DNA of 64,000 bases from an uncultured Gammaproteobacteria bacterium (GCA_964507055.1 CAZDOJ010000001.1:1254758-1318757); one strand, 5' to 3'; positions 43,450 through 64,000 are shown, numbered from the stretch's first letter. Notes: generated by a model not told the origin, from the letters alone. Numbers and translations: made by a program.

Positions 43450-43506
43450 CTCTTTTATTAAGTTTCTCTTACCCCTGATAATTCCTGCTATGTTAGAATA
43501 TTCATT

Positions 43507-44415
43507 ATGAAAAAGCTGTTGCTTATTGATGGAAATGCCATACTGCATCGTGCTTATCATGCATATCCACCACTTACCAATCCTCAAGGTGAAATAATAA
43601 ATGCTGTACTCGGATTTTTCTCTATGGTGCTTACCGTTCTTGCTGACCAAAAGCCTGATTATTTGGTTGTTTGTTTTGACCGCTCGAAGCCAACTATCAG
43701 AACAGAACTTTTTGCTGGATACCATGCCCATCGTCCACAGATGGATGAAGTTTTCCGTAATCAAGTGAAAATCGTTGATGACATCTTGGAAAAAATGAAA
43801 GTTACTGTCTATGCTCTTGATGGTTTTGAAGCGGATGATTTAATCGGAACAATCTCCAGAAGGGCAGTTGAAGAATACAACGAAGAGGTTGTAATCGTAA
43901 CAGGGGATCGAGATCTTCTCCAGCTTGTAAATCCACATGTTAAAGTCTTGATGCCACTTGTAGGTTTGACCAAAACAGTTTTGATGGGAGAAGAAGAAGT
44001 CGAAGCAAAATATGGTGTCCATCCACGACAGTTCATCGATTACAAAGCACTCATTGGAGATGCTTCTGATGGATATCCGGGTGTCACAGGAATTGGTCCA
44101 AAAGGTGCTGCAAAACTTATCCAAGAGTATGGAACATTTGAAAATCTTTATGCCAATGTCGGAGTATTGCCCGAGAAGATCGGATTAAAACTCGCAACTG
44201 ATGCGGAGCAGGCAGCACTTGCCAAAAAGTTGGCAACAATTATCACAGATGCTCCAATTCAATTCGATCTGCTGGAATGCGACACGAAGCATTTTGATAT
44301 TGCAGCGTTACGAAAATCATTCCGTGAACAGGCATTTAATAGTCTTTTAGCACGACTTGATGTGATGTTTGGGAAAGAAGTGATTAAGACAGACGAGCAA
44401 CTGGAACTTATATGA
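43507..44415 (+). CDS. 5'-3' exonuclease (stand-alone FEN/Pol I N-terminal domain)
   Basis: ...LLLIDGNAILHRAYHA... and ...GYPGVTGIGPKGAAKLI... (H3TH). Confidence 0.8.
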   Translation: MKKLLLIDGNAILHRAYHAYPPLTNPQGEIINAVLGFFSMVLTVLADQKPDYLVVCFDRSKPTIRTELFAGYHAHRPQMDEVFRNQVKIVDDILEKMKVTVYALDGFEADDLIGTISRRAVEEYNEEVVIVTGDRDLLQLVNPHVKVLMPLVGLTKTVLMGEEEVEAKYGVHPRQFIDYKALIGDASDGYPGVTGIGPKGAAKLIQEYGTFENLYANVGVLPEKIGLKLATDAEQAALAKKLATIITDAPIQFDLLECDTKHFDIAALRKSFREQAFNSLLARLDVMFGKEVIKTDEQLELI

Positions 44416-45062
44416 ATATCCCTTCACACATAAAAGCAGTCATCTTTGATATGGATGGTTTGCTTATTGACTCTGAACCATATTGGCAGAAATCCGATGC
44501 GAAGTTCTTTGCTAAGCATGGCAAAAAGCATTCACCCGAAATCAATAAACAAATTATGGGGATGGGGCACAAGCAGATTGTTGAGCATTTTAAGAAGAAG
44601 TATGGATTTAAGAAAGATAGAGATGCATTGATTAAAGAACGGAAGGATATCTTTTACGATACGATTATGGGCGAATTGCAATTGATGGAAGGAGCAAAAG
44701 AATTAATCCAAAAGTTATATGACAAGAATTATGCTATGGCAATTGCAACTAGTGGACATAGTACCGAAAAGACTGCAGAAATTCTTGAAAAGCTTGATTT
44801 AGATGTATACATCCCAATTCTTGTTTCAGGAGACGATGTCAAAAAGAGTAAACCTGAACCTGAGATTTATCTCAAAGCAGCGGAAGAATTACAGATTGCT
44901 CCAGAGTTCTGCCTCGTATTTGAAGATGCTCCAAATGGTGTCAAAGCAGGAAAGGCTGCTGGGATGCTAGTCTATGGAATTAATACAGATAAAAAGATTT
45001 ATAAGAATCTTGAGAAAGAAAAAGCGGACAAGGTATTTACGAGTTTGGAAAAAGTGTTGTAG
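44412..45062 (+). CDS. HAD-superfamily hydrolase (subfamily IA, beta-phosphoglucomutase-like)
   Basis: Motif I ...VIFDMDGLLIDSE... Motif III/IV ...K.KPEP...FEDAPNGVKAGKAAGM... Confidence 0.75.
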   Translation: MNIPSHIKAVIFDMDGLLIDSEPYWQKSDAKFFAKHGKKHSPEINKQIMGMGHKQIVEHFKKKYGFKKDRDALIKERKDIFYDTIMGELQLMEGAKELIQKLYDKNYAMAIATSGHSTEKTAEILEKLDLDVYIPILVSGDDVKKSKPEPEIYLKAAEELQIAPEFCLVFEDAPNGVKAGKAAGMLVYGINTDKKIYKNLEKEKADKVFTSLEKVL

Positions 45063-45071
45063 CAACTTTAT

Positions 45072-45320
45072 TTACCAATCGCCTTGGTGACGACCTTTCC
45101 CACGCGATGCTGGGATAGAGCTCATAAGCTCTCTTGCGTTAAATAAGTCATCTCTATCCGAAACTGCTGCACGTTGTTGTTCTTGGACTCTATTAAAAAG
45201 TGCATCGAGACTTCTTCCTCCAACCCAAATTCTTCCTGTAGGTTGTCCTGTGCTTGCATCTATTTCTGGATATGCACTTGGTTTTCTTTCGTGACGTGGT
45301 GCTGATTCTGGCCTTGGCAT
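45072..45320 (-). CDS. Small hypothetical Arg/Pro-rich protein (82 aa), antisense-oriented between two plus-strand genes
   Basis: It fills a 310-bp gap. Its N-terminus MPRPESAPRHERKPS resembles that of the ORF at 46477-46710. Confidence 0.25.
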   Translation of the reverse strand: MPRPESAPRHERKPSAYPEIDASTGQPTGRIWVGGRSLDALFNRVQEQQRAAVSDRDDLFNARELMSSIPASRGKGRHQGDW

Positions 45321-45375
45321 GATGTGATTATATCTAATTATCTTAGCCTGTCAATCGTGTATAATCACAGAAGAG

Positions 45376-46476
45376 ATGCGAGTTGCGTTAGTTCATGATT
45401 ACATCAAAGAATATGGGGGAGCAGAGCGGGTGCTTGAAGCTCTGACCGAGGCATATCCTGACGCTCCAATTTATACAGCGTTTTATAAAAAAGGCTCCCC
45501 GGCATATGAGCGTTTCAAACATAAGAAGATTCGCACTTCATGGGTTCATTATATTCCTGGTTTTTCAACAAAACTGCATAGTCCACTTCGATTTCTCGCA
45601 CCAATAATTTGGGGTGGATTTGATTTCAGTAAATATGATGTAGTGATCAGTTCCGCAAGTTGGTATGTGACAAAGGGTTTTCCCAATAAAGGCAAAGCAA
45701 TTGAAGTTTGCTATTGTCATACACCCCCTCGATGGTTATATGGTTATAAAACCTCCGTTGAATGGCAACGATTCTGGCCGATTAAGATTTATGGAATGGT
45801 CATTGGCCACTTTATGCGGCAGTATGACTTTAACGCGGCCCAAAGAGTCGATCATTTTGTGGCAAATTCCAAAGAAGTTCAGGCAAGAATTGAGAAGTTT
45901 TACAGAAGAGAGTCGACTGTGATTTATCCACCTGTTAGTTTGCCGAAGATTCCAAAGATACAAAAAGGGGATTATTATTTTATTGTTTCGCGTATCGTCG
46001 GGGCAAAAGGAATTGATATGGCTGTTGAGGCTGCAAGAAGGCATGGTTTTACATTGAAAATTGCTGGAGCGGCTGCTGGTTACTACACTGGATTAAAAGA
46101 TATGCAGGAAACAGCACCTGAAAATGTGGAATTCCTCGGACGAGTTTCCGACGAAGAATTGGTAAAACTCTATGCGGGAGCAAAAGCATTCATCGCGACA
46201 GCGACGGATGAAGATTTTGGTATCACACCTGTTGAAGCAATGGTATGTGGAACACCAGTGATTGCCTATCATGGCGGGGGATATAAAGAGACTGTCATTG
46301 AAGGCAAAACTGGAGTCTTCTTTCATGAATCATCAGCCGATGCTCTGGTGCAGGCAGTACGAAAGTTCGAGAAATTGAAACTTGAGCCAAAAGATTGTCG
46401 CAAACAAGCTGAGAAATTTTCCAAGGAACGATTCCTCAAAGAGATAAAAGCCTTTGTACAAAAAGTAGCTAAGTAA
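45376..46476 (+). CDS. Glycosyltransferase family 4 (GT4)
   Basis: ...VHDYIKEYGGAERVLEAL... N-terminus and ...E.FGITPVEAM.CGTPVIA... EX7E region. Confidence 0.75.
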   Translation: MRVALVHDYIKEYGGAERVLEALTEAYPDAPIYTAFYKKGSPAYERFKHKKIRTSWVHYIPGFSTKLHSPLRFLAPIIWGGFDFSKYDVVISSASWYVTKGFPNKGKAIEVCYCHTPPRWLYGYKTSVEWQRFWPIKIYGMVIGHFMRQYDFNAAQRVDHFVANSKEVQARIEKFYRRESTVIYPPVSLPKIPKIQKGDYYFIVSRIVGAKGIDMAVEAARRHGFTLKIAGAAAGYYTGLKDMQETAPENVEFLGRVSDEELVKLYAGAKAFIATATDEDFGITPVEAMVCGTPVIAYHGGGYKETVIEGKTGVFFHESSADALVQAVRKFEKLKLEPKDCRKQAEKFSKERFLKEIKAFVQKVAK

Positions 46477-46710
46477 CTATTTATCCTCAGACCAGAGAAG
46501 CTGTGACTGTTTTGGTAACGCTTCATGATGATGTGGCTCCCCAAAAGTGTCGCCGTGGCGGTGTAATTTGGCATGGAAGTCTACAACTAAATGCCTATCT
46601 TGTCTTCGTACAGGTTCAGTTAAATGATCTTCCAAAAGATGTCGACGTGCTTCGGCATTTGTCGTAACGGTTGGTCTAATAGGTGATCGAGTGCGTTCTG
46701 GTGCTGACAT
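46477..46710 (-). CDS. Small hypothetical Arg/His-rich protein (77 aa)
   Basis: It fills a 300-bp gap. Its N-terminus MSAPERTRSPIRPT resembles that of 45072-45320. Confidence 0.25.
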   Translation of the reverse strand: MSAPERTRSPIRPTVTTNAEARRHLLEDHLTEPVRRQDRHLVVDFHAKLHRHGDTFGEPHHHEALPKQSQLLWSEDK

Positions 46711-46778
46711 AAAAAAAGTATTCTACAACGCGTTCTCTTCTTTGTCAAAATCATTTTTTCGTATGCTACAATCGGTTC

Positions 46779-47633
46779 ATGCCAGAACTCCCAGAAGTTG
46801 AAACAATCAGAATTGGCCTTCAAAAATACATTGTTGGGCATACTATTCAATCTATAGATGTCCACTTACCGAAGCAATTAAGTGGTGATACAAATGCTGT
46901 TATTGGTGCCAAGATATTGGAAGTAAAACGATTTGGAAAAGGATTGGTGATTGATTTGAATAATGGCTACAGTATCACGATTCATGTGAAGATGACCGGG
47001 CAGATGCTTTATCGAAATCCTCAACAAACGGTTCGTCAGGTAATTCCTGGGAATGCAAAAGTTGCTATCGATGCGTTGCCAGATAAGTATACGCATGTCG
47101 TTTTTCATCTCGATAAAGGAGCAGAATTATTCTATCGAGATGTACGTCAGTTTGGTTGGATAAAGATTGTCAAAAGTGATTCTGTGGCGTCACAACAGTA
47201 TTTCAAAAGCCTTGGACCAGAACCATTGCGTGATTTAACACTTCCGATGTTTCAGGAGATTGTCCTAAAAAGAAAAACGTCTATCAAAATGCTCTTAATG
47301 GATCAGGGATTGATTGCTGGGATAGGCAATATTTATGCCAATGATGCCTTGTTTATCTCCCATATTCATCCCCAGCGTTCTGCCAATTCTTTAACGAAAG
47401 ATGAACAGGAAAAACTCTTTGATGCAATTGAGGTTGTCTTAAGAAAAGGGATTGCAGTGGGTGGAGCGAGCGAGTGGTCTTATGTGGATGCACTTGGGCA
47501 AGCTGGAAAATATCAGGATTTTTTCCAAGTTTATCGAAAACATGGCCAACCATGCCCCAACTGTGGAACAATTATCGAAACAATACGAATGGGTGGACGA
47601 GGGACCTTTTTTTGCCCTCAATGTCAGCGGTAA
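46779..47633 (+). CDS. mutM: Formamidopyrimidine-DNA glycosylase (Fpg/MutM)
   Basis: N-terminal MPELPEVETIR (catalytic Pro2/Glu3). C-terminal zinc finger CPNCG...CPQCQR. Confidence 0.9.
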   Translation: MPELPEVETIRIGLQKYIVGHTIQSIDVHLPKQLSGDTNAVIGAKILEVKRFGKGLVIDLNNGYSITIHVKMTGQMLYRNPQQTVRQVIPGNAKVAIDALPDKYTHVVFHLDKGAELFYRDVRQFGWIKIVKSDSVASQQYFKSLGPEPLRDLTLPMFQEIVLKRKTSIKMLLMDQGLIAGIGNIYANDALFISHIHPQRSANSLTKDEQEKLFDAIEVVLRKGIAVGGASEWSYVDALGQAGKYQDFFQVYRKHGQPCPNCGTIIETIRMGGRGTFFCPQCQR

Positions 47634-48874: not shown

Positions 48875-49585
48875 ATGGGGAATAATAACGGACGTAAACG
48901 TATTATAATTTCAGTAGGGGGATCCCTAATTGTCCCTAATGAAGGGATTAAAACTGAGTTTCTTAAGAAGCTCAATGCGTTTGTTAGAGAAGAACTGGCC
49001 AAAGATTCTAAGCGCCAGTTTTTTTTGGTCGCAGGAGGGGGATCAACAGCACGTAAGTATATTGACGCCGGGCGAGAAGTGCTCGGACATGATCTTACTC
49101 ATGAAGATCTTGATTGGCTAGGTGTCCATTCCACAACCCTCAATGCCCACCTCATCCGCACAATCTTCAGAGACATCGCTCATCCCAAACTTATCCGCCA
49201 CTATGATATTATCCGTAAAGCTCACGAACAAGTTGTGGTTGCAGCAGGTTGGAAGCCAGGCTGGTCCACTGATTACTGTGCGACACTTTTGTGCGAAGAT
49301 TACGGTGTAAAAACTGTTATCAACTTGAGTAATGTAGAGCAAGTATATGACAAAGATCCTCGAAAATTTCCTGACGCAAAAGCATTAAAAAAACTCTCAT
49401 GGAATGGTATGCGGGAGATTGTAGGGGATGATTGGACACCTGGACTAAATGCTCCGTTTGATCCTATCGCTGCAAAGAAAGCACAAGAGCTTGGAGTAAG
49501 AGTCGTTGTTATGTCAGGAAACAACTTTGATAATATCCGTAATTATCTTGATAACAAACCATTTACTGGAACAGTCATCGAATAA
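48875..49585 (+). CDS. Amino-acid-kinase family protein, UMP-kinase-like (archaeal-type PyrH-like)
   Basis: ...KRIIISVGGSLIVP... and ...FFLVAGGGSTARKY... are typical AAK-fold nucleotide-binding loops. Confidence 0.5.
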   Translation: MGNNNGRKRIIISVGGSLIVPNEGIKTEFLKKLNAFVREELAKDSKRQFFLVAGGGSTARKYIDAGREVLGHDLTHEDLDWLGVHSTTLNAHLIRTIFRDIAHPKLIRHYDIIRKAHEQVVVAAGWKPGWSTDYCATLLCEDYGVKTVINLSNVEQVYDKDPRKFPDAKALKKLSWNGMREIVGDDWTPGLNAPFDPIAAKKAQELGVRVVVMSGNNFDNIRNYLDNKPFTGTVIE

Positions 49586-49638
49586 CTACAGTAGCTTGCA
49601 AATTACTCAGTTCTCCTTTATTATTTCTCAATCAGCTA

Positions 49639-50700
49639 ATGTACTTAAAAGATATCTCTCTGCAAAATTTCCGCAGCTACAATAAAGCTCATTTCACATT
49701 TGATCCAAGCATCTCTATTATCGTCGGTCCCAATGCTGCTGGTAAAACAAATCTTGTTGAAGCTATCGGACTTCTCTCAACAGGGAAGAGTTTCAAAACA
49801 GGTGGGGATAAGCATCTCATCGCATTTGGCAAACCCGCAGCACATCTCTCCGGAGAGTTACAAGAAGATGATGATACTGAGAAGTTGGAGATTGCTGTTG
49901 CCGCAAGTCCAACTGGTATGATGTTGAAAAAGTATCTCGTTAATGGTGTATCGCGAAGGAGAAATGGTTTTGCCGGCAAACTTCCAGCTGTTTTGTTTAC
50001 GCCGCTAGATCTCGATATTGTTGCTGGACAGCCTGGAGAGCGAAGGCGATTTCTCAATGAAGTACTCGAGCAAACTGATTCTCAATACGATGCTGCTCTG
50101 ACACAATATACCAAAGCCCTCCGTCAACGAAATGCCTTACTTGAGTTCGTCCAACGAAGTGGGAGACGGGATGAAGAACGGTTTGCGTATTGGGATACTG
50201 TCTTGATCTCGAACGCAAAGATCATCAGTGACAAGAGGGAAGAGCTAATTAATTATATTAACTCACAAGAGAAGACACTCTTTCCATTTATACTGACATA
50301 CGATAAAAGCGTGATGTCACGTGAGAGGCTTTTACAATATAAAGACGCTGAAGCCGGAGCGGGTGTGACGCTTGTTGGGCCACAACGCGATGATGTCTTT
50401 ATCCAGTCGTACCATCCTGTTTCTCAGGAGCTTGAAGATGTAAAACATTTTTGCTCAAGAGGACAACAAAGGCTTGTGACATTAGAACTTAAGAAATCCC
50501 AAATTGCATACCTCCAAGAGCAATTACAAACGCAACCACTACTTATTCTTGATGATATCTTCTCTGAGCTTGATAGCAAACACATTGATCATGTCCTGCA
50601 TATGGCACATGATTTCCAAACGATTATTACGACTACACATAAGGAATTTGTCATGATTGATGGGCTGGAAAATCCGCATGTGATAGAATTAGGAAAGTAA
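49639..50700 (+). CDS. recF: DNA replication and repair protein RecF
   Basis: ...LQNFRSYNKAHFTFDPSISIIVGPNAAGKTNLVEAI... Walker A, SMC-like signature region, and a D-loop near the C-terminus. Confidence 0.85.
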   Translation: MYLKDISLQNFRSYNKAHFTFDPSISIIVGPNAAGKTNLVEAIGLLSTGKSFKTGGDKHLIAFGKPAAHLSGELQEDDDTEKLEIAVAASPTGMMLKKYLVNGVSRRRNGFAGKLPAVLFTPLDLDIVAGQPGERRRFLNEVLEQTDSQYDAALTQYTKALRQRNALLEFVQRSGRRDEERFAYWDTVLISNAKIISDKREELINYINSQEKTLFPFILTYDKSVMSRERLLQYKDAEAGAGVTLVGPQRDDVFIQSYHPVSQELEDVKHFCSRGQQRLVTLELKKSQIAYLQEQLQTQPLLILDDIFSELDSKHIDHVLHMAHDFQTIITTTHKEFVMIDGLENPHVIELGK

Positions 50701-50718
50701 TAGTACTGCCTGTTCAAA

Positions 50719-51615
50719 ATGGATTTTGCTCAGGAAACTTTTCTTATGCAATCTTTTAATCCTGACCTTCTTAAGCAGTTGTACATACCTGCTCATGATT
50801 CCCACAAAGGCCAAAACGGTAAACTTCTTATTATTGGTGGTTCACGCTTATTTCACGCAGCTTCTCTTTGGGCATTAACTACAGCAAGTCGGATCGTCGA
50901 TATGGTTTTTTACGCATCGGTAGCTGAAAATAATGCGGTAGTACAAGAATTAAAGAAGGAATTCCGCAATGGTATCGTTGTTGCTCGCGATGACATTGAA
51001 TCATATATCGAAGAGGCAGAAGCAGTTCTAATTGGGCCAGGAATGCTACGTCAAGAAGAATCTTTTGATAAGAATAAACACCTGACGCTCAAGCAAATCA
51101 ATGAAATCAGTAATGAAGGCGAGCAAACCTATTACCTTACACGATACCTTCTTACAAAATATCCTCACAAGAAGTGGGTAATTGATGCTGGTGCTCTGCA
51201 AATGATAGATCTGACATGGTTAAAACATATGGCTGGAAATGTCGTCCTCACGCCACATGTTGATGAATTTTCAAGAGTGTTTGGAGAGATAAAGGATGTC
51301 GGTGCTTTGGCAAAAGAATATAAATGCACAATTCTTTTGAAAGGCGAAAATGATGTCGTCTGTTCTTCAACACAATGTGTCAAAATAGCTGGAGGAAATC
51401 CTGGTATGACCAAAGGTGGGACAGGTGATGTCCTTGCTGGTTTGATCGCCGCACTTGCTACAAAAAATGAATTGTTTCTGGCTGCATCAGCAGGTTCGTA
51501 TATTAATAAGCAAGCAGGGGAGTCATTGGAAAAAAGAGTAGGATACTATTTCAATGCTTCTGATCTTGCCAATGAAATACCTCAGGTAATGAAGCGAACA
51601 ATGCTTGATAAATAG
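50719..51615 (+). CDS. nnrD: ADP-dependent NAD(P)H-hydrate dehydratase (YjeF C-terminal domain)
   Basis: ...HKGQNGKLLIIGGS... and ...GGNPGMTKGGTGDVLAGLIAAL... Confidence 0.8.
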   Translation: MDFAQETFLMQSFNPDLLKQLYIPAHDSHKGQNGKLLIIGGSRLFHAASLWALTTASRIVDMVFYASVAENNAVVQELKKEFRNGIVVARDDIESYIEEAEAVLIGPGMLRQEESFDKNKHLTLKQINEISNEGEQTYYLTRYLLTKYPHKKWVIDAGALQMIDLTWLKHMAGNVVLTPHVDEFSRVFGEIKDVGALAKEYKCTILLKGENDVVCSSTQCVKIAGGNPGMTKGGTGDVLAGLIAALATKNELFLAASAGSYINKQAGESLEKRVGYYFNASDLANEIPQVMKRTMLDK

Positions 51616-51617
51616 AT

Positions 51618-51842
51618 TTGGCAAGCTATAATAACCCCATGAGTGAATTCCTTCGGAGACTAGGACGAGAAATTGGTGTTGAGCCAGGAAATCAGCCAAC
51701 AAGGTCAGATCGTCTGAGAGTCAGAGATGATGTCGAAGCGTGGAAGTCACGATATATGGAAGAGCACGGGCATAAACCTAAACCTACTGAGATAGCTGAT
51801 GCTGGAATTCAGATCTGGCGAAGACGCGGTGCTCGTATTTAA
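51618..51842 (+). CDS. Small hypothetical protein (74 aa) immediately upstream of the Fic gene, a possible antitoxin-like partner
   Basis: Basic small ORF. It contains ...SRYMEEHG..., which loosely resembles the Fic-inhibitory [ST]xxxE[GN] motif. Confidence 0.3.
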   Translation: MASYNNPMSEFLRRLGREIGVEPGNQPTRSDRLRVRDDVEAWKSRYMEEHGHKPKPTEIADAGIQIWRRRGARI

Positions 51843-51898
51843 ACTTCACATTGCCTTTTTTCGGGAAATAGGCAATAATAAACTGACTTTTCACTCCT

Positions 51899-52939
51899 AT
51901 GTATACTCCGAAATATACAATCAATAATACAATTTTGCGCAACATTGGCATTGTTGAGGCAGCCCGCGAAGTTATTTCTCACGCCCCTTTACTTCCATAT
52001 TACGAAAAAGAATTTCAAAAAGATGCACTTGCTCGTGCTGTTCATCATGGTACGCATATCGAAGGAAACGAACTTGATATGGATCAGGCTGAAAAGGTTA
52101 TTGCCGGACAACAGATCGTTGCACGTGCACGAGATATCCAGGAAGTTATTAATTACCGTCGAGTGATGGAGCATATCGGCAAAGACGAAACAAAACATAT
52201 CAATGAAGATTTGCTCAAAGACTTGCATCGAATGACTGTTGATAAACTCCTCGTTCCAGAACGATGCGGACAATACCGTACAACACAGGTTGTTGTTCGT
52301 AACAGTCTGACAGGGGATGTGACATTTACTCCGCCAGTCGCAACAGCAGTGCCTCAGCAAGTGAAAGAGCTTCTTGAATTCATCGATAAAACCGATCCTG
52401 AAACACTGCACCCAGTGCTGAAGAGTGGCATTGTTCACTATGAACTCGCTCGTATCCATCCATTTGTTGATGGAAATGGGCGTGTTTCTCGTGCTCTCTC
52501 AACATTTATTCTTTTTCAAGAAGGTTATGACATTCGTAAATTCTTTTCACTTGAAGAATATTTTGATAATGATGCAAGTGAGTATTATTCTGCCTTGCAA
52601 AGTGTTGGCCGAAATGACGGTGATCTGACTGAATGGCTTGCATACTTTACCCAGGGATTGGCGATTGAATTGAATAAGATCAAAGAGAAGATTGAGAAGA
52701 TTTCGGTTGATGTGAAGATCAAAGAACGCCAAGGTGGTGAACCGATCATGCTTTCTGAAAGACAACTTAAAATTATGGAATATATCCAAAAGGTAGGATT
52801 CTTGCAGAATAATGGTTTTAAACAACTTTTCCCAATGGTCAGTGAAGATACTGTTTTGAATGAACTAAAATATCTCATTAAGCATGGGTTACTTAAGAAG
52901 CAGGGAAGTACGAAAGGAGCAAAGTACGTCCGGGCATAA
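51899..52939 (+). CDS. Fic/DOC family protein with a C-terminal winged-HTH
   Basis: Fic motif HPFVDGNGRVSRAL. N-terminal ...HHGTHIEGNELD... helix. Confidence 0.85.
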   Translation: MYTPKYTINNTILRNIGIVEAAREVISHAPLLPYYEKEFQKDALARAVHHGTHIEGNELDMDQAEKVIAGQQIVARARDIQEVINYRRVMEHIGKDETKHINEDLLKDLHRMTVDKLLVPERCGQYRTTQVVVRNSLTGDVTFTPPVATAVPQQVKELLEFIDKTDPETLHPVLKSGIVHYELARIHPFVDGNGRVSRALSTFILFQEGYDIRKFFSLEEYFDNDASEYYSALQSVGRNDGDLTEWLAYFTQGLAIELNKIKEKIEKISVDVKIKERQGGEPIMLSERQLKIMEYIQKVGFLQNNGFKQLFPMVSEDTVLNELKYLIKHGLLKKQGSTKGAKYVRA

Positions 52940-52940
52940 G

Positions 52941-54707
52941 ATGAAATTTACTGAACTCACACAATATTTTGAAAGACTTGAAGAAACCTCCTCACGACTA
53001 GCTCTCATTGATATCCTCTCTGAACTCTTCAAGAAAACAGATAAAACAACAGTCGATAAAGTCATGTATCTTGCACAAGGACGTGTTGCACCATTTTATG
53101 AACCAACGGAGATTGGTATGGCTGATAAGATGGTTGCCCAAAGTATTGGTGAAGCATTTGGTTTGACCAAAGATGAGGTATTGGCTGAGTATGCAAGAAA
53201 AGGGGATTTAGGGATTGTTGCATTTGAGCTTTCTGAGAAAAAACGCCAAAAGGGAAAAAAAGAAGAATTATCGGTTATAACCGTTTTCGAGGAACTCACA
53301 AACATTGCCAATACAAGTGGTGTGGGATCGGTTGAGAAAAAGATAACTGCTCTCAAGGCTCTTCTTGAACATATGGATGCAGTTTCAGCAAAGCATTTGG
53401 TCAGAATTCCCCTGGGCAAAACCCGACTTGGGATAGGTGATCCGACGATTCTTGATGGTATTGCAATCGCAATACTCGGAGACAAGTCAAAGAGAAAGTT
53501 ACTTGAGAAAGCTTACAATGAAACCTCCGATTTAGGATTAATCGGCAAAACATTAATGGAAGGGGGACTTGAAGAAGTTCAAAAGCTTGGTGTCTCTGTC
53601 GGGCGTCCCATCCGATCTGAACTTTGCGAGCGTTTGCCAAATCCGGTCAAAGTCTTTGAGAAAATGGATACTGATGGATTGGGAATTCACGCGACACATA
53701 AATACGATGGATTCCGTGTCCAGATCCACAAGAATGGTGACAAAGTCGAGATGTTCTCTCGTAACCTTGAAGACATGACACATATGTTCCCAGAACTTAT
53801 CGAAGGAACACGCAAACAGATCAAAGCAAAGACAGTTATCCTTGATTCTGAGGCAATGGCATACCAGCCTGAATCACAGGAGTTTTTGCCTTTCCAAGAA
53901 ACTACCAAACGTCGTCGAAAGCACAATATCGAAGAGATGGCAGAATCGTTACCCTTGAAAGCATTTGTCTTTGATATTTTATATGTCGACGGGAAATCGC
54001 TTCTCGGAACTCCATTAAACGAACGCGTTGAGATCATGAAGAAAACAATTGCTGGAGACGAGATCTTGATTCCAGAGCCGGGGACGATTATGAAGAAAGC
54101 AGAGGATCTCCAACTTATGCTTGACGATGCTTTCACACAAGGTTTAGAGGGAGTGGTTATCAAAAGACCGGATTCAGGCTATGAAGCAGGTGGACGTAAC
54201 TTTAATTGGGTAAAACTCAAGAAACACTCAGCTGGAGATTTGAATGACACAATTGATTGCGTCATCCTTGGTTACATTTACGGAAAAGGCAAAAGAACAG
54301 ACTTTGGAGCAGGTGCATTGTTGGTGGGTCTCTATGATAAAGAGCAGGATCAATTTGTCTCTGTAACGCGAATTGGGACTGGTTTATCTGACGATGAATG
54401 GCGAAGTATCAAAGAGAAAGTCAAAGGCTTGGAATCCGATCACAAGCCCGCTCGCGTCCATTCATTTATTACGCCAAGTGTTTGGGTAAAGCCTGAGATA
54501 GTCATTGAAGTTTTAGCCGATGAAATCACCAGAAGTCCGTTGCATACGGCTGGTGCAACGGTGGATGCAGATGGTTTGAAAGTTCCTGGCTATGCACTCA
54601 GATTTCCTCGATTGGTTTCTTTTCGAGATAAAGATAAAAAGGCGGAAGATGCTACTTCAGTTGATGAGTTGATTGAGATGTTTAATGATCAAGGAAAGAA
54701 AGAGTAA
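52941..54707 (+). CDS. ATP-dependent DNA ligase
   Basis: Adenylation motif I KYDGFRVQIH (KxDG). The OB-fold region follows. The start at 52941 (MKFTEL...) abuts the Fic stop. Confidence 0.8.
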   Translation: MKFTELTQYFERLEETSSRLALIDILSELFKKTDKTTVDKVMYLAQGRVAPFYEPTEIGMADKMVAQSIGEAFGLTKDEVLAEYARKGDLGIVAFELSEKKRQKGKKEELSVITVFEELTNIANTSGVGSVEKKITALKALLEHMDAVSAKHLVRIPLGKTRLGIGDPTILDGIAIAILGDKSKRKLLEKAYNETSDLGLIGKTLMEGGLEEVQKLGVSVGRPIRSELCERLPNPVKVFEKMDTDGLGIHATHKYDGFRVQIHKNGDKVEMFSRNLEDMTHMFPELIEGTRKQIKAKTVILDSEAMAYQPESQEFLPFQETTKRRRKHNIEEMAESLPLKAFVFDILYVDGKSLLGTPLNERVEIMKKTIAGDEILIPEPGTIMKKAEDLQLMLDDAFTQGLEGVVIKRPDSGYEAGGRNFNWVKLKKHSAGDLNDTIDCVILGYIYGKGKRTDFGAGALLVGLYDKEQDQFVSVTRIGTGLSDDEWRSIKEKVKGLESDHKPARVHSFITPSVWVKPEIVIEVLADEITRSPLHTAGATVDADGLKVPGYALRFPRLVSFRDKDKKAEDATSVDELIEMFNDQGKKE

Positions 54708-54756
54708 GCCAAATTTTCTTACTGTAAAATACTATCCGAATGCTAGAATTATTTCA

Positions 54757-56088
54757 ATGCAGTATGTTACAGATCTCCATCTTCATTCCAAATACTCTCG
54801 AGCAGTTTCTCCACAGATGAATCTTCAGACAATGGCACAATTAGCATTACAAAAGGGTTTGGATGTTTTATCTGCAGCAGATTTTACCCATCCGATTTGG
54901 TTTAAAGAGATTAGTGAGCAATTAGAACAAGCTGAAGAAGGTTTATATACATTGAAAGGGAATGAAGATCTTTCCAAGATCCGATTTATGCTTTCAACAG
55001 AAATTTCCTCGATATACAAGCAAGGTGATAAATTACGCAGAATTCATAATTTGATTTTTGTTCCAAGTTTGGAAACAGCGGAGAAGTTTAATAAGGCAAT
55101 TGTGGCAAGAGGAGGAAATCTCAATGCAGATGGTCGTCCAATTGTAGGGATGTCATCAAAGAATTTACTCGAGCTGTTACTCTCAATTGACGAGCGGGCA
55201 TTTTTGATCCCGGCACATGTCTGGACGCCTCACTTTGGTATTTATGGTTCGGCTTCTGGATTTGATTCGTTGGAAGAAGCATTCGGAGAGCTTGCACCAA
55301 AGATCTTTGGAATTGAGACGGGGCTTTCAAGTGATCCCGATATGAATTGGCAAGTGCCGGAGCTGATGAATCGAAGCATCTTATCATTCTCTGATGCACA
55401 TAGTGCTCCGAAGATGGCTCGTGAAGCAACCGTGGTGGAATTGGAATCGCTTAGTTATACGAATATCCGTCATGCGTTTGAACGATTTTCTCGCCCCGAA
55501 CTTGGAACGAAAAACAGGATTGCGTATACATTGGAGTTCTATCCTGAAGAAGGAAAATATCATTTTTCGGGACATCGTGATCATAAAGTAGTTTTTGGTC
55601 CTGATGAAATCAGAACGAATGGCAATACGTGTCCAGTTTGTAATAGAAGATTAACTGAAGGTGTTTTATTCCGTGTGCAGCAATTGGCAGATGAATCACT
55701 TTTGCACCGCACGGTTGAGAAAATTGAAAAGGATGGGATCAAATGGTATGAAGATTCAAAGAAGATTCAACCTCCATTTGTAAAATTAGTACCACTTCTG
55801 GAAATTGCTGCGGAATCTCTTGGATCGACAGTAAATAGTCAAAAGTCAAAGAATCTTTTCGCCAAACTCTGTGCAGAACTCCAATCAGAATTACATGTTC
55901 TTTTGCGTGCTCCAATTGAAGATATTGAGCGAGTCGGTGGAGGAAGAGTTGCACAAGGTGTGCTGAAAGTGAGGGAAGGAAATATAGCAATTGAGCCAGG
56001 TTATGATGGGGTGTATGGGAAAGTTAAAATCTGGAAAGAAGGCGAAGAAAAAGCTTCTGATGTTCCACAATTAGCTTTGGATCTTTAG
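54757..56088 (+). CDS. PHP-domain protein with a Zn-ribbon, endonuclease Q (EndoQ)-like
   Basis: N-terminus ...VTDLHLHSKYSRAV... is the PHP metal-binding motif. ...CPVCNRRLTEG... is the zinc ribbon. An alternative upstream start at 54673 would overlap the ligase. Confidence 0.5.
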   Translation: MQYVTDLHLHSKYSRAVSPQMNLQTMAQLALQKGLDVLSAADFTHPIWFKEISEQLEQAEEGLYTLKGNEDLSKIRFMLSTEISSIYKQGDKLRRIHNLIFVPSLETAEKFNKAIVARGGNLNADGRPIVGMSSKNLLELLLSIDERAFLIPAHVWTPHFGIYGSASGFDSLEEAFGELAPKIFGIETGLSSDPDMNWQVPELMNRSILSFSDAHSAPKMAREATVVELESLSYTNIRHAFERFSRPELGTKNRIAYTLEFYPEEGKYHFSGHRDHKVVFGPDEIRTNGNTCPVCNRRLTEGVLFRVQQLADESLLHRTVEKIEKDGIKWYEDSKKIQPPFVKLVPLLEIAAESLGSTVNSQKSKNLFAKLCAELQSELHVLLRAPIEDIERVGGGRVAQGVLKVREGNIAIEPGYDGVYGKVKIWKEGEEKASDVPQLALDL

Positions 56089-56148
56089 CGAAAAGGTAAT
56101 TAATCTTACGTTATTTTCACCTTTCGTATGCTATGCTAGAAGGAGATT

Positions 56149-56763
56149 ATGAAGTTAATTGTAGGACTAGGAAACCCCGGAGAAAAATATCAAAACACAC
56201 GCCACAATGTCGGCTTCATGGCAGTTGATCATTTCCTCAAAGAACTTGGTACAAGCAAAGATGATTGGAGCAGTAATGCTAAGCTCAAAAGTGATATTGC
56301 GACGTTTACTATCCCTTCTGATTCCGGAGAAGAGAAAGTGATTCTCGCAAAACCACAAACATTTATGAATGAATCTGGTATTGCTGTACATTTGCTCATG
56401 CATTTCTACAAGGTTGAACCAGATGATTTATGGATTGTGTATGATGAATTAGATTTACCATTGGGAACCCTTAAGATTCGAAATGGTGGAGCAGCGGCCG
56501 GACATCATGGAGTAGAGTCTGTCATGGAGCATGTGGGAACAGATAAATTTTGGAGATTTCGATTAGGTATTGGAGTTTCACGAAATCATGAGCAACCTGT
56601 GGGTAAACAATTCATTCGTGATGCAAAAGAATTTGTCCTCGATATATTTACACAATCAGAACAGGGGAAGCTCCGTGAAATGATCAAGCACACCTGTCAT
56701 GCTCTTGAATGTGGTATCAAAAAAGATCTTGAGACCGCTATGAATAAGTACAACACCAAATAA
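56149..56763 (+). CDS. pth: Peptidyl-tRNA hydrolase
   Basis: MKLIVGLGNPGEKYQNTRHNVGFM... An AGGAGA Shine-Dalgarno sequence lies 5 nt upstream. Confidence 0.9.
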   Translation: MKLIVGLGNPGEKYQNTRHNVGFMAVDHFLKELGTSKDDWSSNAKLKSDIATFTIPSDSGEEKVILAKPQTFMNESGIAVHLLMHFYKVEPDDLWIVYDELDLPLGTLKIRNGGAAAGHHGVESVMEHVGTDKFWRFRLGIGVSRNHEQPVGKQFIRDAKEFVLDIFTQSEQGKLREMIKHTCHALECGIKKDLETAMNKYNTK

Positions 56764-56764
56764 T

Positions 56765-57088
56765 ATGCAATCTCTCAAAAGTGTTCTCACTCGATTTAAT
56801 CCTACAACTGACAAATATATTTCTCGTGAGTTTCAGACGTTTGGCTTGCATCTTGCGGACCAGCTGGATGATTACAAGCACAAGAGTTTATATATTAAAT
56901 TAGCTAAGACAACTCCTCGTGCAATTCTTGAGCAGGCGTTATCATTTTGTGTCGATAGTAAAGCGACCAATAAAGGAGCACTGTTCATGTGGAAATTGAA
57001 GGAGATTAAGAAAGATATGAAAAGTGCTGCAATCCCAGTTCCAAAGGTTGAACAACCTTCGTTAATTCCAGAAGTTCCCGTAGTATGA
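56765..57088 (+). CDS. Hypothetical protein, 107 aa
   Basis: The ORF is tightly coupled between pth and acyP. Confidence 0.35.
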   Translation: MQSLKSVLTRFNPTTDKYISREFQTFGLHLADQLDDYKHKSLYIKLAKTTPRAILEQALSFCVDSKATNKGALFMWKLKEIKKDMKSAAIPVPKVEQPSLIPEVPVV

Positions 57089-57354
57089 AACAAGCACATG
57101 TTTTTATATCAGGTTCCGTCCAAGGTGTCGGCTACCGTCAATTCGTCAAACAAAATGCTCGTAAATTGGGTATAAATGGTTGGGTTCGTAACACTGAAGA
57201 TGGTGGAGTAGAAGCTGTTCTGCAGGGCGAAGAGTCAATGATTGAAGTGATGATTGAGCAATGCAAAAAAGGTCCCTTTATGTCTGAAGTCGAGCATTGT
57301 GGTTTTGAATGGGAAGAATCGGAAGAAGAGTACGATAGTTTTAACCTCGCATAG
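57085..57354 (+). CDS. acyP: Acylphosphatase
   Basis: ...ISGSVQGVGYRQFV...GWVRNTEDGGVE... acylphosphatase signatures. Confidence 0.85.
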   Translation: MKQAHVFISGSVQGVGYRQFVKQNARKLGINGWVRNTEDGGVEAVLQGEESMIEVMIEQCKKGPFMSEVEHCGFEWEESEEEYDSFNLA

Positions 57355-57374
57355 CCTCTGCTATAATCAGCTTC

Positions 57375-57686
57375 ATGACAATTAAAGAACAAAAACGAAT
57401 CTGGGGTATTCCACTTGGACGAGAGCGTGTAGTTGTCGGCGTAACCGAAGTCGAAGAACGCATCCCATCAGGTGTTTCTGGTATGACGATTAAAGATCGA
57501 TTTGCCGTTGATGGTGCTAGCGATATTGTCACACAAACTCGTGTAACACGAATTCGTCCAGATGAACCTGTTAGAGAACAGAGACCAAGTATTTTAAAAG
57601 AAAATGGAATTAATAGAGAAAATGGGGAACTAGTTATTCGAACAGGAAAGATAATTCAAACAGTTTTTCGTTATACTCCAGAATAA
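57375..57686 (+). CDS. Hypothetical protein, 103 aa
   Basis: ORF with a plausible start. I recognise no motif. Confidence 0.3.
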   Translation: MTIKEQKRIWGIPLGRERVVVGVTEVEERIPSGVSGMTIKDRFAVDGASDIVTQTRVTRIRPDEPVREQRPSILKENGINRENGELVIRTGKIIQTVFRYTPE

Positions 57687-61929: not shown

Positions 61930-62856
61930 ATGGAAAATATCTACGACGTCATCATCATAGGATCAGGACCCTCAGGGCTTACAGCCGCTATCTACACAAC
62001 TCGTGCAAGTCTCAAGACTCTCGTTGTCGCTGGTGATAAATGGGGTGGACAACTTATGCTTACGACAGAAGTTGAGAATTTTCCGGGATTTCCAGAAGGT
62101 ATTCAAGGTCCAGATCTGATGGCAAATATCCGAAAGCAAGCAGAACATCACGGTGCAGAAATCGTTGATGTGAAGTTCGTTGAAGGTGATTTCCACAAAG
62201 CTGGTGGACCATTTACTATCACAACAGAAGAAAAAACCTACCAAGCAAAGACAGTTATCATCGCAACAGGTGCTGATACGAAATGGCTTGGTGTACCTGG
62301 TGAAGCCGAAAAGATCGGTCGAGGTATTTCTTCATGTGCCCCGTGTGATGCACCATTCTTTAAGGAAAAGGATGTTATTGTTGCTGGTGGAGGAGATAGT
62401 GCAATGGAAGAAGCGTGTGTGCTGACTCGTTTTGCAAAAAGTGTCACCATAGTTCATCGAAGAGAAGAATTACGTGCGTCTCAGATTATGCAGGAAAAAG
62501 CCCGTGCTAATCCAAAGATTAAGTTCGCTTTGAATACTGAGATCACTGAAATTACAGGAGAATTTAAGGTTGAAGGTGTTACATTGAAAAATAATGCAAC
62601 TGGAGAAACAAGTGAGATGAAAATAGATGGAGTTTTTGTGGCAATTGGTCATATTCCAAATAGTAAAGTTTTCCCTGGAATTGACATTGATGAAAAAGGT
62701 TTTATTAAAGCAGCAGAGCATACAAAAACAAATATTGAAGGCGTTTTTGTAGCAGGGGATGTCCATGACAAGGAATATATGCAAGCAATTACAGCGGCAG
62801 GACTCGGTTGCCAAGCAGCCCTTGATGCTGAGCGATGGTTAGCATCAAAAGAATAA
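61930..62856 (+). CDS. trxB: Thioredoxin-disulfide reductase
   Basis: FAD motif ...DVIIIGSGPSGLTAAIY... Redox-active ...SCAPCD... NADPH motif ...VAGGGDSAMEEA... Confidence 0.9.
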   Translation: MENIYDVIIIGSGPSGLTAAIYTTRASLKTLVVAGDKWGGQLMLTTEVENFPGFPEGIQGPDLMANIRKQAEHHGAEIVDVKFVEGDFHKAGGPFTITTEEKTYQAKTVIIATGADTKWLGVPGEAEKIGRGISSCAPCDAPFFKEKDVIVAGGGDSAMEEACVLTRFAKSVTIVHRREELRASQIMQEKARANPKIKFALNTEITEITGEFKVEGVTLKNNATGETSEMKIDGVFVAIGHIPNSKVFPGIDIDEKGFIKAAEHTKTNIEGVFVAGDVHDKEYMQAITAAGLGCQAALDAERWLASKE

Positions 62857-63049: not shown

Positions 63050-63122
63050 GGGCCGTTAGCTCATTTGGTAGAGCACCTCATTTGCACTGAGGGGGTGGCG
63101 GGTTCAAATCCTGTACGGTCCA
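63050..63122 (+). tRNA. tRNA-Ala (UGC)
   Basis: GGGCCGT...ACGGTCC acceptor with the G3:U70 Ala identity pair. Anticodon loop TTTGCAC. T loop TTCAAAT. 73 nt. CCA is not encoded. Confidence 0.85.
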
Positions 63123-63384
63123 CTAATCAAAGTGTAAATGTCTAAAACTAGTTTGCCATCAAGCATTGAGGCAAACCTTCTAGTAAGAGAAGGTTTACCT
63201 GAGTGACTTGATGATAGATACTCCTTCGTCGATAGGCGGAAGAGGCTCTTTAAAAAGTGAAGAGAATATCCTGAATTGTGTTTATTTCTGCACCCGCAGA
63301 AGTCCATGGCGCAATCCAGGATAAATAATCATGTCTTAAATAGCTCTAATTGAGTTAATCAATTAGGGTGTTAAAAAAAAATAA

Positions 63385-64000
<616 letters not shown>

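Follow-up and report, generated by a model that had tools for sequence, protein, structure and literature searches.

Bacterial repair modules centred on an ATP-dependent DNA ligase are known from the Ku–LigD system of non-homologous end joining (NHEJ) and from the 'ligase-associated DNA damage response' cluster of LigB, Lhr and PdeM. Here we describe a locus within a 64,000-nt stretch of bacterial DNA (GCA_964507055.1 CAZDOJ010000001.1:1254758-1318757; this whole stretch is referred to as the window), in which an ATP-dependent ligase (Lig) also lies beside DNA-processing genes, but where the ligase belongs to another subfamily and its partner is a Fic AMP-transferase with a C-terminal winged helix–turn–helix domain (wHTH). 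A small open reading frame (ORF) precedes the Fic gene, and a gene for a homologue of endonuclease Q (EndoQ) follows that of the ligase. The step from Fic to Lig is the only adjacency of the surrounding gene block that is kept in every block locus examined. On balance, we consider it fairly probable that the region is a vertically inherited chromosomal replication and repair neighbourhood, in which a strain-specific small ORF, a probably autoregulated pair of Fic-wHTH and ligase, and a loosely linked EndoQ stand side by side.

The Fic protein compares with three described proteins of similar build. CccR of Yersinia pseudotuberculosis represses its own promoter via its C-terminal DNA-binding domain (PMC9755527). 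We propose this role for the Fic-wHTH as well, and CccR matches our protein over the full length in sequence (E 1.3e-19) as well as in fold (7XUX); CccR is, however, a toxin secreted by the type VI secretion system that AMPylates FtsZ, whereas the gene studied here is a conserved chromosomal gene of the candidate phyla radiation (CPR) that is coupled to a ligase and whose operator binding is putative. CbFic2 of Coxiella burnetii (8CIL), likewise a class-II Fic protein with a helix–turn–helix at the C-terminus, is switched between AMPylase and deAMPylase activity by DNA binding and targets a DNA-associated protein (PMC10628234), but this effector acts on host histone H3, is only about 20% identical and has no association with a ligase. 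Finally, SoFic, which comes with the antitoxin AS1 (3EQX; PMC12249575), shares the N-terminal inhibitory helix, the Fic core and the wHTH, and the PADLOC SoFic model matches our Fic at 2e-52, a match that reflects this shared architecture. Unlike SoFic, our protein fails the equivalog cut-off and has no AS1-like gene downstream; its gene is not patchy in distribution but fixed, inherited vertically and strongly conserved, and catalytically dead orthologues hold the same genomic place.

For the ligase, the closest described enzyme is that of Sulfolobus (2HIV), with which it shares the DNA-binding domain, the adenylation domain and the OB fold, motif I in the form KYDG and a passing score with TIGR00574. 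It differs from the Sulfolobus enzyme in its bacterial host, in having no recognisable clamp motif at its termini and in being always preceded by a gene for a Fic-wHTH or pseudo-Fic-wHTH protein; from LigD it is set apart by the missing polymerase and phosphoesterase domains and by the absence of a Ku gene nearby. EndoQ leaves a ligatable 3'-OH/5'-P nick, and a pathway consisting of EndoQ, polymerase, FEN and ligase has been proposed (PMC4357722). Shiraishi et al. found that archaeal EndoQ binds PCNA by a C-terminal PIP box and noted beta-clamp motifs in bacterial homologues (PMC4858679). The EndoQ of the window resembles the enzymes of P. furiosus and T. kodakarensis (5ZB8, 7K30) in full-length homology, PHP ligands, zinc finger, C-terminal helical domain and a clamp motif at the extreme C-terminus. 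In contrast to the archaeal proteins, it is bacterial (CPR), ends in a beta-clamp motif, QLALDL, instead of a PIP box, and its first zinc pair is H-x2-H (H-x2-C in most relatives) where the archaeal finger reads C-x2-C … C-x2-C. It also scores below the trusted cut-off of TIGR00375, and in Microgenomates its gene lies near that of an ATP-dependent ligase.

Gene order and conservation of the Fic–ligase pair

The genes at the centre of this study and their principal motifs are as follows.

51899..52939, + strand: class-II Fic AMP-transferase with C-terminal winged helix, 346 aa (Pfam, fold matches, AF2 model)
52049-52069 (residues 51-57), + strand: GTHIEGN, inhibitory helix of Fic, aligning with TVAIEGN of FICD
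52457-52492 (residues 187-198), + strand: catalytic motif of Fic, HPFVDGNGRVSR, fitting HxFx(D/E)GNGRxxR
residues ~285-346 of Fic, + strand: wHTH, a winged helix
52941..54707, + strand: ATP-dependent DNA ligase of the Lig1/archaeal three-domain type, 588 aa (domain and family models)
53700-53711, + strand: ligase motif I, K254-Y-D-G (KxDG)
54757..56088, + strand: EndoQ homologue, 443 aa, with PHP metal site, variant zinc finger and C-terminal domain (homology)

They belong to a run of eleven co-directional genes (48875-57686, + strand) with gaps of -4 to 60 nt, in the order UMP-kinase-like (UMPK), RecF, NAD(P)HX dehydratase (NnrD), small ORF, Fic, Lig, EndoQ, peptidyl-tRNA hydrolase (Pth), a conserved gene termed h107, acylphosphatase (AcP) and a 103-aa ORF. 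A first-pass annotation, made from the sequence alone, had singled out the four genes from the small ORF to EndoQ as one tightly coupled module. All four ORFs are indeed present and co-directional where it had placed them, the 56 nt between small ORF and Fic are as it gave them, and a single nucleotide separates the Fic stop codon TAA (52937-52939) from the Lig ATG (52941). Between Lig and EndoQ it had left the choice between a short gap and an overlap; the gap stands, with 49 nt between the Lig stop (54707) and the EndoQ ATG (54757), whereas an overlap would require the TTG start at 54673, a longer EndoQ start that was rejected because orthologues start at M[HQ]YVTDLHLHS. A longer Lig start at 52884 was rejected as well, Lig orthologues starting at MKF.EL. 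What does not hold is the tight coupling of just these four, since close spacing is common to all eleven genes; the region is better described as three separately promoted units, with deep conservation only from Fic to Lig.

The window, which has 23S rRNA at its end, is of bacterial origin, and the closest named relatives of its proteins come from Candidatus Levybacteria/Levyibacteriota in the Patescibacteria (CPR); the host chromosome is that of a Levybacteria-like member of the Microgenomates (CPR/Patescibacteria), i.e. of an ultra-small bacterium. Many records of metagenome-assembled genomes (MAGs) with a block of this Microgenomates type (in our numbering of loci L003-L006, L011, L012, L014, L018 and others) are titled 'uncultured Gammaproteobacteria bacterium', and other such records Acidiferrales, Sulfotelmatobacter or Methylomirabilota, which appear to be taxonomic mislabels in public records.

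At least 594 genome loci encode an EndoQ relative. Gene order was compared in a set of 80 genome loci encoding EndoQ relatives (42-66% identity), on which relatives of eleven window proteins were located by tblastn. About 50 loci from Microgenomates (Levy-, Gottesman-, Woese- and Blackburnbacteria as well as many MAGs) carry UMPK-RecF-NnrD-Fic-Lig-EndoQ-Pth-h107-AcP on one strand. The order Fic-Lig-EndoQ recurs in about 45-51 related genomes, far beyond chance, and these three genes are thus conserved in order rather than scattered in relatives. Fic and Lig are colinear in all 45 assessable loci (median gap 223 nt, maximum 1323 nt), eight of which have gaps of at most 20 nt. From Lig to EndoQ, colinearity is found in 51 of 72 loci, with a median gap of 1128 nt and a maximum of ~9 kb; the inserted genes encode a glycosyltransferase, a P-type ATPase, a Ca/Na antiporter and four-helix-bundle proteins, all unrelated to repair, with an MGMT-like gene in a few loci as the exception. 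Control pairs are about as conserved (UMPK->RecF in 22/25, Pth->h107 in 38/42 loci), and therefore synteny in this clade alone cannot be read as indicating an operon.

Comparison with more distant lineages brings in further genes of the neighbourhood.

49639..50700, + strand: RecF, member of the larger conserved block upstream of Fic
43507..44415, + strand: FEN, a stand-alone 5'-3' exonuclease; context gene and candidate for flap removal after EndoQ incision
46779..47633, + strand: Fpg/Nei DNA glycosylase; context gene of the ancestral GT4-Fpg-RecF-Fic-Lig block
56765..57088, + strand: h107, conserved, 107 aa; after EndoQ-Pth here, directly after Lig in WWE3-type loci

Outside the Microgenomates, EndoQ and the pair part company: in Dehalococcoidia, Latescibacterota, Paceibacterota, Magasanikbacteria and others, the EndoQ loci lack Fic, Lig, RecF and Pth in the vicinity. 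Conversely, six contexts of the type found in candidate division WWE3 read GT4-Fpg-RecF-(small gene)-pseudoFic-Lig-h107, with gaps of 12-661 nt between Fic and Lig and with neither EndoQ nor Pth. Two further lineages with partly degenerate Fic motifs also have Lig downstream, at 23 nt in L103, which reads FtsH-FEN-GT4-Fpg-RecF-Fic-Lig, and at 1.7 kb in L102. Overall, Lig lies downstream of Fic (12-1690 nt) in 8/8 distinct Fic-anchored contexts outside the EndoQ set, none of which contains EndoQ. The ancestral block would thus seem to have been FtsH-FEN-GT4-Fpg-RecF-Fic-Lig-h107, with EndoQ-Pth placed between Lig and h107 in Microgenomates only.

A conserved promoter element upstream of Fic

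A second line of evidence comes from the spacer in front of the Fic gene.

51851..51879, + strand: Fic promoter with conserved operator-like element TTGCCTTTTTTCGGGAAATAGGCAATAAT, common to the loci L090 and L001
51860-51879, + strand: core of this element, TTCGGGAAATAGGCAATAAT, overlapping the -10 region, 19 nt before the Fic ATG

The spacer flanking the element is otherwise unalignable among the window, L090 and L001, L090 being the nearest relative (EndoQ 87%, Fic 92% identical). Many Levybacteria loci have this core upstream of Fic, including ones in which a further gene separates it from Fic. The consensus 20-mer TGCGGGAAATATGCGAGAAT, with up to four mismatches allowed, gave 23 matches in 1.57 Mb of loci plus window, 20 of them on the coding strand and just upstream of Fic or pseudo-Fic, while a back-of-the-envelope estimate of the chance expectation is about one match. 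In six of six WWE3-type loci, TGCGGGAAATATGC[GA]A[GA]AAT, essentially the Levybacteria element, is found a few bases before the start of pseudo-Fic. The element is laid out as a direct repeat, TGCGGGAA-ATA-TGCGAGAA, which overlaps the -10 region, and Woesebacteria-type loci have an inverted version, TTCCGCA-N5-TGCGGTAAT. Neither terminators nor the global number of promoters in the window rose above shuffled expectation, and only individually conserved promoter sites are used as evidence here.

The predicted recognition helix of the wHTH, VSEDT[VI]L[RN][ED]L, is conserved across all these lineages. Most economically, the Fic-wHTH would itself bind the promoter element and autoregulate, as we infer from this analysis. 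As a separate observation, a copy of the 20-mer with four mismatches, TGCGTGAAATAAGCGTGAAC, lies inside the NnrD coding region both in the window (50840-50859, - strand) and in L090 (5505-5524, - strand) and probably reflects coincidental conservation of coding sequence.

Catalytic residues kept and lost in the Fic protein

That the first gene of the pair encodes a Fic/DOC AMP-transferase with a wHTH was confirmed by Pfam (Fic, 3.5e-18) and by an AF2 model built on 38 sequences (pLDDT 87.8), which consists of the Fic core followed by three helices and a beta-hairpin at residues 287-345. Full-length Foldseek matches of the model are 4RGL, 7XUX (CccR), 8CIL (CbFic2) and 3EQX/3ZCN (SoFic), with E values of 4e-15 to 1e-11. 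The inhibitory helix GTHIEGN has Gly at the usual Ser/Thr position, just as previously noted: it reads G51-THI-E55-G56, so that Glu and Gly of the [ST]xxxE[GN] motif are present. Among 43 Microgenomates orthologues, 42 have GTH[IL]EG and the remaining one NTHIEG, i.e. the Ser/Thr position is Gly in all but one, where it is Asn; the residue that follows is Asn in all but three. Glu55 is kept in 43/43 of these orthologues, and so is the catalytic HP[FY]x[DE]GNGR.

The picture is different in the WWE3-type relatives (27-35% identity), which a profile search placed in candidate division WWE3 and unclassified Patescibacteria, and which belong to a family with 224 cluster representatives at E <= 1e-30 in an exhaustive HMMER search. 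In 30/30 sequences fetched, the motif has decayed to xPFExxNxxxxxL, with neither the catalytic His nor GNGR; best conserved in this group is the C-terminal wHTH (ERQERIIEYLQDYGxLQNKDF…SEDTVLRDLK…GSTKSSRYEL). Thus, catalysis is not what keeps Fic next to Lig, because the pair persists in WWE3 after its loss. The one catalytically intact relative from outside the block that was looked up (39% identity) lies between a transporter gene and a methyltransferase-like gene, and there is no ligase on its 3.2-kb contig.

The ligase and endonuclease Q

The assignment of the second gene as an ATP-dependent (KxDG) ligase is borne out by DNA_ligase_A_N/M/C (PF04675, PF01068, PF04679), all above their cut-offs, by TIGR00574 (415.8 bits, cut-off 217.8) and by a best match in the Protein Data Bank (PDB) to the Sulfolobus ligase 2HIV (E 7.7e-122). 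K254, D256, G257, R259, E304, K425 and K427 are invariant in 51 Lig orthologues, and no clamp-binding motif was found at the ligase termini in 46 orthologues. In a test of low power, no Ser, Thr or Tyr residue of Lig was found to be kept in the loci with an active Fic and missing from those with a dead one.

The first-pass annotation had remarked on the absence of Ku, and Ku is absent from the annotated genes of the block and its surroundings (~40.1-62.9 kb of the window) and of related loci. Lhr, PdeM and SbcD-like partners are likewise missing from the annotated genes of this part of the window, the rest of the window not having been scanned for these families or for Ku. Every LigD, NHEJ and LigB model stayed below its cut-off. 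Filing the ligase under LigD/NHEJ was rejected (TIGR02779, 157 versus 227.75; TIGR02776, 133.7 versus 373.2; no Ku partner in the annotated block), as was filing it with the LigB damage response (TIGR04120, 139.9 versus a cut-off of 400; partner genes missing from the annotated block).

The third protein had been called EndoQ-like, with a histidinol-phosphatase-type enzyme as the alternative to be checked. The latter is excluded: the protein is EndoQ, with an end-to-end match to P. furiosus EndoQ (5ZB8; E 9.7e-44, phmmer against the PDB) that aligns query residues 5-428 with chain residues 5-385. H8, H10, E82, H97, H154, D213 and H215, invariant or nearly so in 26 homologues, align with the P. 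furiosus residues that serve as PHP metal ligands. The zinc finger reads H273-x2-H276 … C292-x2-C295, with C at position 276 in most relatives and H273, C292 and C295 invariant. TIGR00375 gave 165.5 bits, below its trusted cut-off of 326.6, though covering model positions 3-374 of 374, and homologues of 63-79% identity are labelled 'endonuclease Q family protein' by NCBI. Two short elements lie at the ends of this gene.

56068..56085, + strand: beta-sliding-clamp-binding motif QLALDL (QLxLxL type) at the EndoQ C-terminus
54741..54749, + strand: extended -10 element TGCTAGAAT, ending 7 nt before the EndoQ ATG

The last residues of the protein are PQLALDL; in most of 80 orthologues the C-terminus reads QLGLDF, QLSLF or QMGLF, which is the bacterial beta-clamp consensus. 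The EndoQ start has no Shine-Dalgarno sequence upstream, and EndoQ is likely to have an independent promoter of the leaderless type, judging from these sequence features. In 22 of 54 related loci, a regular-expression search found a -10-like TAnnnT located 5-9 nt ahead of the EndoQ start; many copies have a TG extension, and the element is missing where Lig abuts EndoQ. More generally, many genes here lack a Shine-Dalgarno sequence and show TAnAAT (often TGnTAnAAT) that ends 6-8 nt ahead of the start codon. Examples from the window are the small ORF (site at 51627-51641) and EndoQ (site at 54741-54759); in WWE3-type loci, pseudo-Fic and Lig follow the same pattern (L093, 7974-8003 and 8993-9011; L095; L099). 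This suggests that leaderless mRNAs are widespread in these CPR lineages.

The small open reading frame

Upstream of Fic, the window contains a gene that has no place in the conserved set.

51639..51842, + strand: small basic ORF of 67 aa, annotated as a gene in NCBI and Logan assemblies; singleton cluster
51605..51632, + strand: promoter-like TTGATA-16-TATAAT for the small ORF (11/12 match), in the same arrangement in L090

The 74-aa version that had been proposed uses a TTG start at 51618, whereas public annotations use the ATG at 51639, which is the more probable start; it lies 6 nt past the -10 element and looks leaderless. The ORF has been seen only on contigs identical to the window. It has no homologues in the 80 related loci (tblastn, blastp and phmmer, E up to 10) and no family match in Pfam, NCBIfam, PADLOC or PHROGs, and several genomes have no room for it because NnrD and Fic are only 36-110 nt apart there. 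L090 shows the same arrangement of promoter and start, with a 79-aa ORF in the same position, but this positional analogue has no significant similarity to the small ORF (E 0.13) and no SRYMEE motif. We therefore read the small ORF as a fast-evolving strain-level small gene or transcript and not as a conserved partner of Fic. An Rfam scan of the spacer between NnrD and Fic at gathering thresholds found no non-coding RNA. In 19-20 other loci (L002, L006, L010, L011, L013 and 15 more), a conserved membrane protein of 74-116 aa is encoded on the minus strand just upstream of Fic, with a DUF5654 match in L103; it has no counterpart in the window, where the spacer is filled by the small ORF.

Other observations on the neighbourhood

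Upstream in the window, FtsH, FEN, GT4 and Fpg follow each other in the same order as in L103 (1-6949). With the order FtsH, FEN, (HAD), GT4, Fpg at 41575-47633, the block extends at least 10 kb upstream, and its repair genes are FEN, Fpg and RecF. At the other end of the block, h107 is 41-83% identical across 52 loci, which exceeds the conservation of Fic and of Lig, and has EFQxYG…LYIKLAK…LFMWKL as its core; it is also found in L093 (10770-11048), L095 (10861-11232), L099 (9134-9412) and L101 (9802-10080). It has no family, PHROG or PDB match, and a single-sequence AF2 model was uninformative (pLDDT 49.6). The ancestral Fic-Lig block may have included h107 too.

Two kinds of small gene interrupt the block in subgroups. 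One is an MGMT/ATL-like ORF of 75-113 aa (PCHRVV motif) between Lig and EndoQ in one Levybacteria subgroup (L030, 9270-9611, - strand; L033, L039, L072, L076), which adjoins an inverted copy of h107 and adds one more DNA-repair gene to the neighbourhood. The other is a conserved ORF of 61-73 aa with two transmembrane segments between Fic and Lig in Woese- and Gottesmanbacteria-type loci (L027, L029, L031, L032, L035, L036 and seven more; for example 3865-4074 in L036); its position recalls that of AS1 downstream of EcSofic, yet it looks like a membrane protein, and it is absent from the window. Finally, positions 63050-64000 of the window hold tRNA-Ala(TGC) followed by the 5' end of 23S rRNA, and the upstream neighbour (61930-62856) encodes a thioredoxin-reductase-like oxidoreductase and not 16S rRNA, which suggests an unlinked rRNA operon.

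Discussion

If the region is a replication and repair neighbourhood of the kind that we favour, it could operate as follows. The small ORF would be driven by its own promoter and be unrelated to the conserved set. The Fic-wHTH would bind the TGCGGGAA-type repeats over the -10 region and thereby set expression of Fic and Lig, as CccR does at its own promoter, and in the window Lig would be co-transcribed with Fic and translationally coupled to it at the stop–1 nt–start junction. The Microgenomates Fic, which we read as a still regulated enzyme because the catalytic core and the inhibitory Glu are kept in all 43 orthologues, would be a (de)AMPylase, possibly DNA-gated like CbFic2, that acts on a DNA-associated target; in WWE3, only a DNA-binding, non-catalytic role of the protein could remain. 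EndoQ, expressed from its own leaderless-type promoter, would by homology nick DNA 5' of dU, dI or abasic sites and would probably be recruited by the beta clamp via QLALDL. The nick would then be processed by FEN and polymerase and be sealed by a ligase, plausibly the adjacent one. The first-pass annotation had thought of a dedicated repair or anti-phage module, and its first half is coherent for EndoQ and ligase, because EndoQ leaves a nick that can be ligated (PMC4357722).

Several points weigh against this reading. The whole block is syntenic, including unrelated pairs such as GT4-Fpg and EndoQ-Pth, and adjacency alone is therefore no proof of a functional link between Fic and Lig. The WWE3-type Lig has its own promoter, TGnTAGAAT-N6-ATG, right after the Fic stop codon, and co-transcription of Fic and Lig is therefore not universal. 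The promoter element could be bound by another regulator. Moreover, loci were sampled with EndoQ (80 loci) or Fic (nine look-ups) as the anchor and in no case with Lig.

Some of these points also favour the alternative that survives best, a serious one although we regard it as rather unlikely, namely that gene order in Microgenomates and WWE3 is just stable, with the Fic-wHTH being a general regulator or AMPylase that has no special tie to ligase or EndoQ. Unrelated neighbours are equally conserved, with GT4-Fpg-RecF occurring in both classes in addition to the control pairs; Lig can have a promoter of its own; many loci accommodate small unrelated genes between Fic and Lig; and no Ser, Thr or Tyr residue of Lig tracks the catalytic loss in Fic. 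Stable gene order would not, however, readily explain why Fic->Lig should be the sole adjacency found in every locus (45/45 and 8/8), across Fic sequences of ~30% identity, when RecF->Fic, Lig->h107 and Lig->EndoQ are all broken by insertions of several genes, nor why the junction should be stop–1 nt–start or the gap at most 20 nt in at least eight loci.

One can also go further than we do and see in the Fic-fold/wHTH protein a dedicated, co-inherited ligase partner in Microgenomates, WWE3 and related CPR bacteria, which would bind its operator and, where catalytic, control nick sealing or nearby proteins by DNA-gated (de)AMPylation, the WWE3 pseudoenzyme keeping only a DNA-targeting or scaffolding function. 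We consider this unlikely. The reading in which Fic on DNA directly (de)AMPylates Lig, the clamp or EndoQ and so gates the sealing of nicks, with scaffolding or DNA targeting left over in WWE3, appears improbable. The deep and tight linkage of Fic to Lig, the conservation of catalytic motif and inhibitory Glu in Microgenomates orthologues and the precedent of CbFic2 as a DNA-gated bifunctional Fic protein that modifies a DNA-bound protein (PMC10628234) would all fit such direct control. It is at odds, however, with the loss of catalytic residues in 30/30 WWE3 members in which the pairing persists, and no candidate target residue emerged in Lig. In the literature searched, no paper links Fic functionally to a DNA ligase or treats ATP-dependent ligases in CPR.

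Very improbable is an anti-phage or abortive-infection module, in which a SoFic-like toxic AMPylase would cooperate with nuclease and ligase. SoFic has been published as a one-gene defence system that comes with a small antitoxin (PMC12249575), relatives of Fic-wHTH occur in phage families (phrog_5978, 1.7e-54), and in a PADLOC check the SoFic model did match our Fic (2e-52), but Lig, EndoQ and the small ORF matched no PADLOC model. The NCBIfam SoFic equivalog NF046030 gave Fic 69 bits against a cut-off of 550, and solved SoFic structures match the Fic core only (E 2.7e-11), more weakly than FICD does. Downstream of Fic there is no AS1-like gene but Lig, after a gap of 1 nt. In particular, more than 50 genomes of two classes have the genes at one constant chromosomal site, surrounded by housekeeping genes, the best 120 database homologues of Fic are all at least 71% identical, and a scan of viral contigs with the Fic alignment found no relatives, all of which speaks against the anti-phage half of the earlier proposal.

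Scarcely credible, finally, is the toxin–antitoxin layer suggested by the first-pass annotation, in which the small ORF would provide a Fic toxin with its inhibitory [ST]xxxE[GN] helix, by analogy with class-I FicT/FicA or VbhT/VbhA: the ORF does lie immediately upstream of Fic and does contain SRYMEEHG, and the motif of Fic itself does have Gly at the Ser/Thr position, but SRYMEE ends in E and not in G or N, the ORF is absent from the 80 related loci (several of which have no room for it) and its L090 analogue has no such motif, ORF and Fic have separate promoters, that of Fic being conserved, Fic carries its own N-terminal inhibitory helix with Glu55 in 43/43 orthologues, and the VbhT and DOC models gave scores far below their cut-offs.

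Each protein of the neighbourhood belongs to a known family, and no part of it is new. What appears to be undescribed in the literature searched is the linkage of a Fic-wHTH protein to a Lig1-type ligase across at least two CPR classes, a 20-bp promoter element that stays nearly unchanged while the protein diverges to ~30% identity, and the clean loss of Fic catalysis in WWE3 with gene and position retained. In addition, EndoQ is common in CPR, Dehalococcoidia and Latescibacterota, compared with its description in 2015-16 as limited to a few bacterial genera. Should the Fic protein indeed be a dedicated ligase partner, this would constitute a previously undescribed layer of control on DNA ligation, with a transition from Fic enzyme to pseudo-Fic within one conserved pair. 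If the link between Fic and ligase is functional, the pair could provide a tractable route to understanding how an archaeal-type ligase is controlled and integrated in a bacterial replisome and what role chromosomal class-II Fic-wHTH proteins play outside toxins and effectors.

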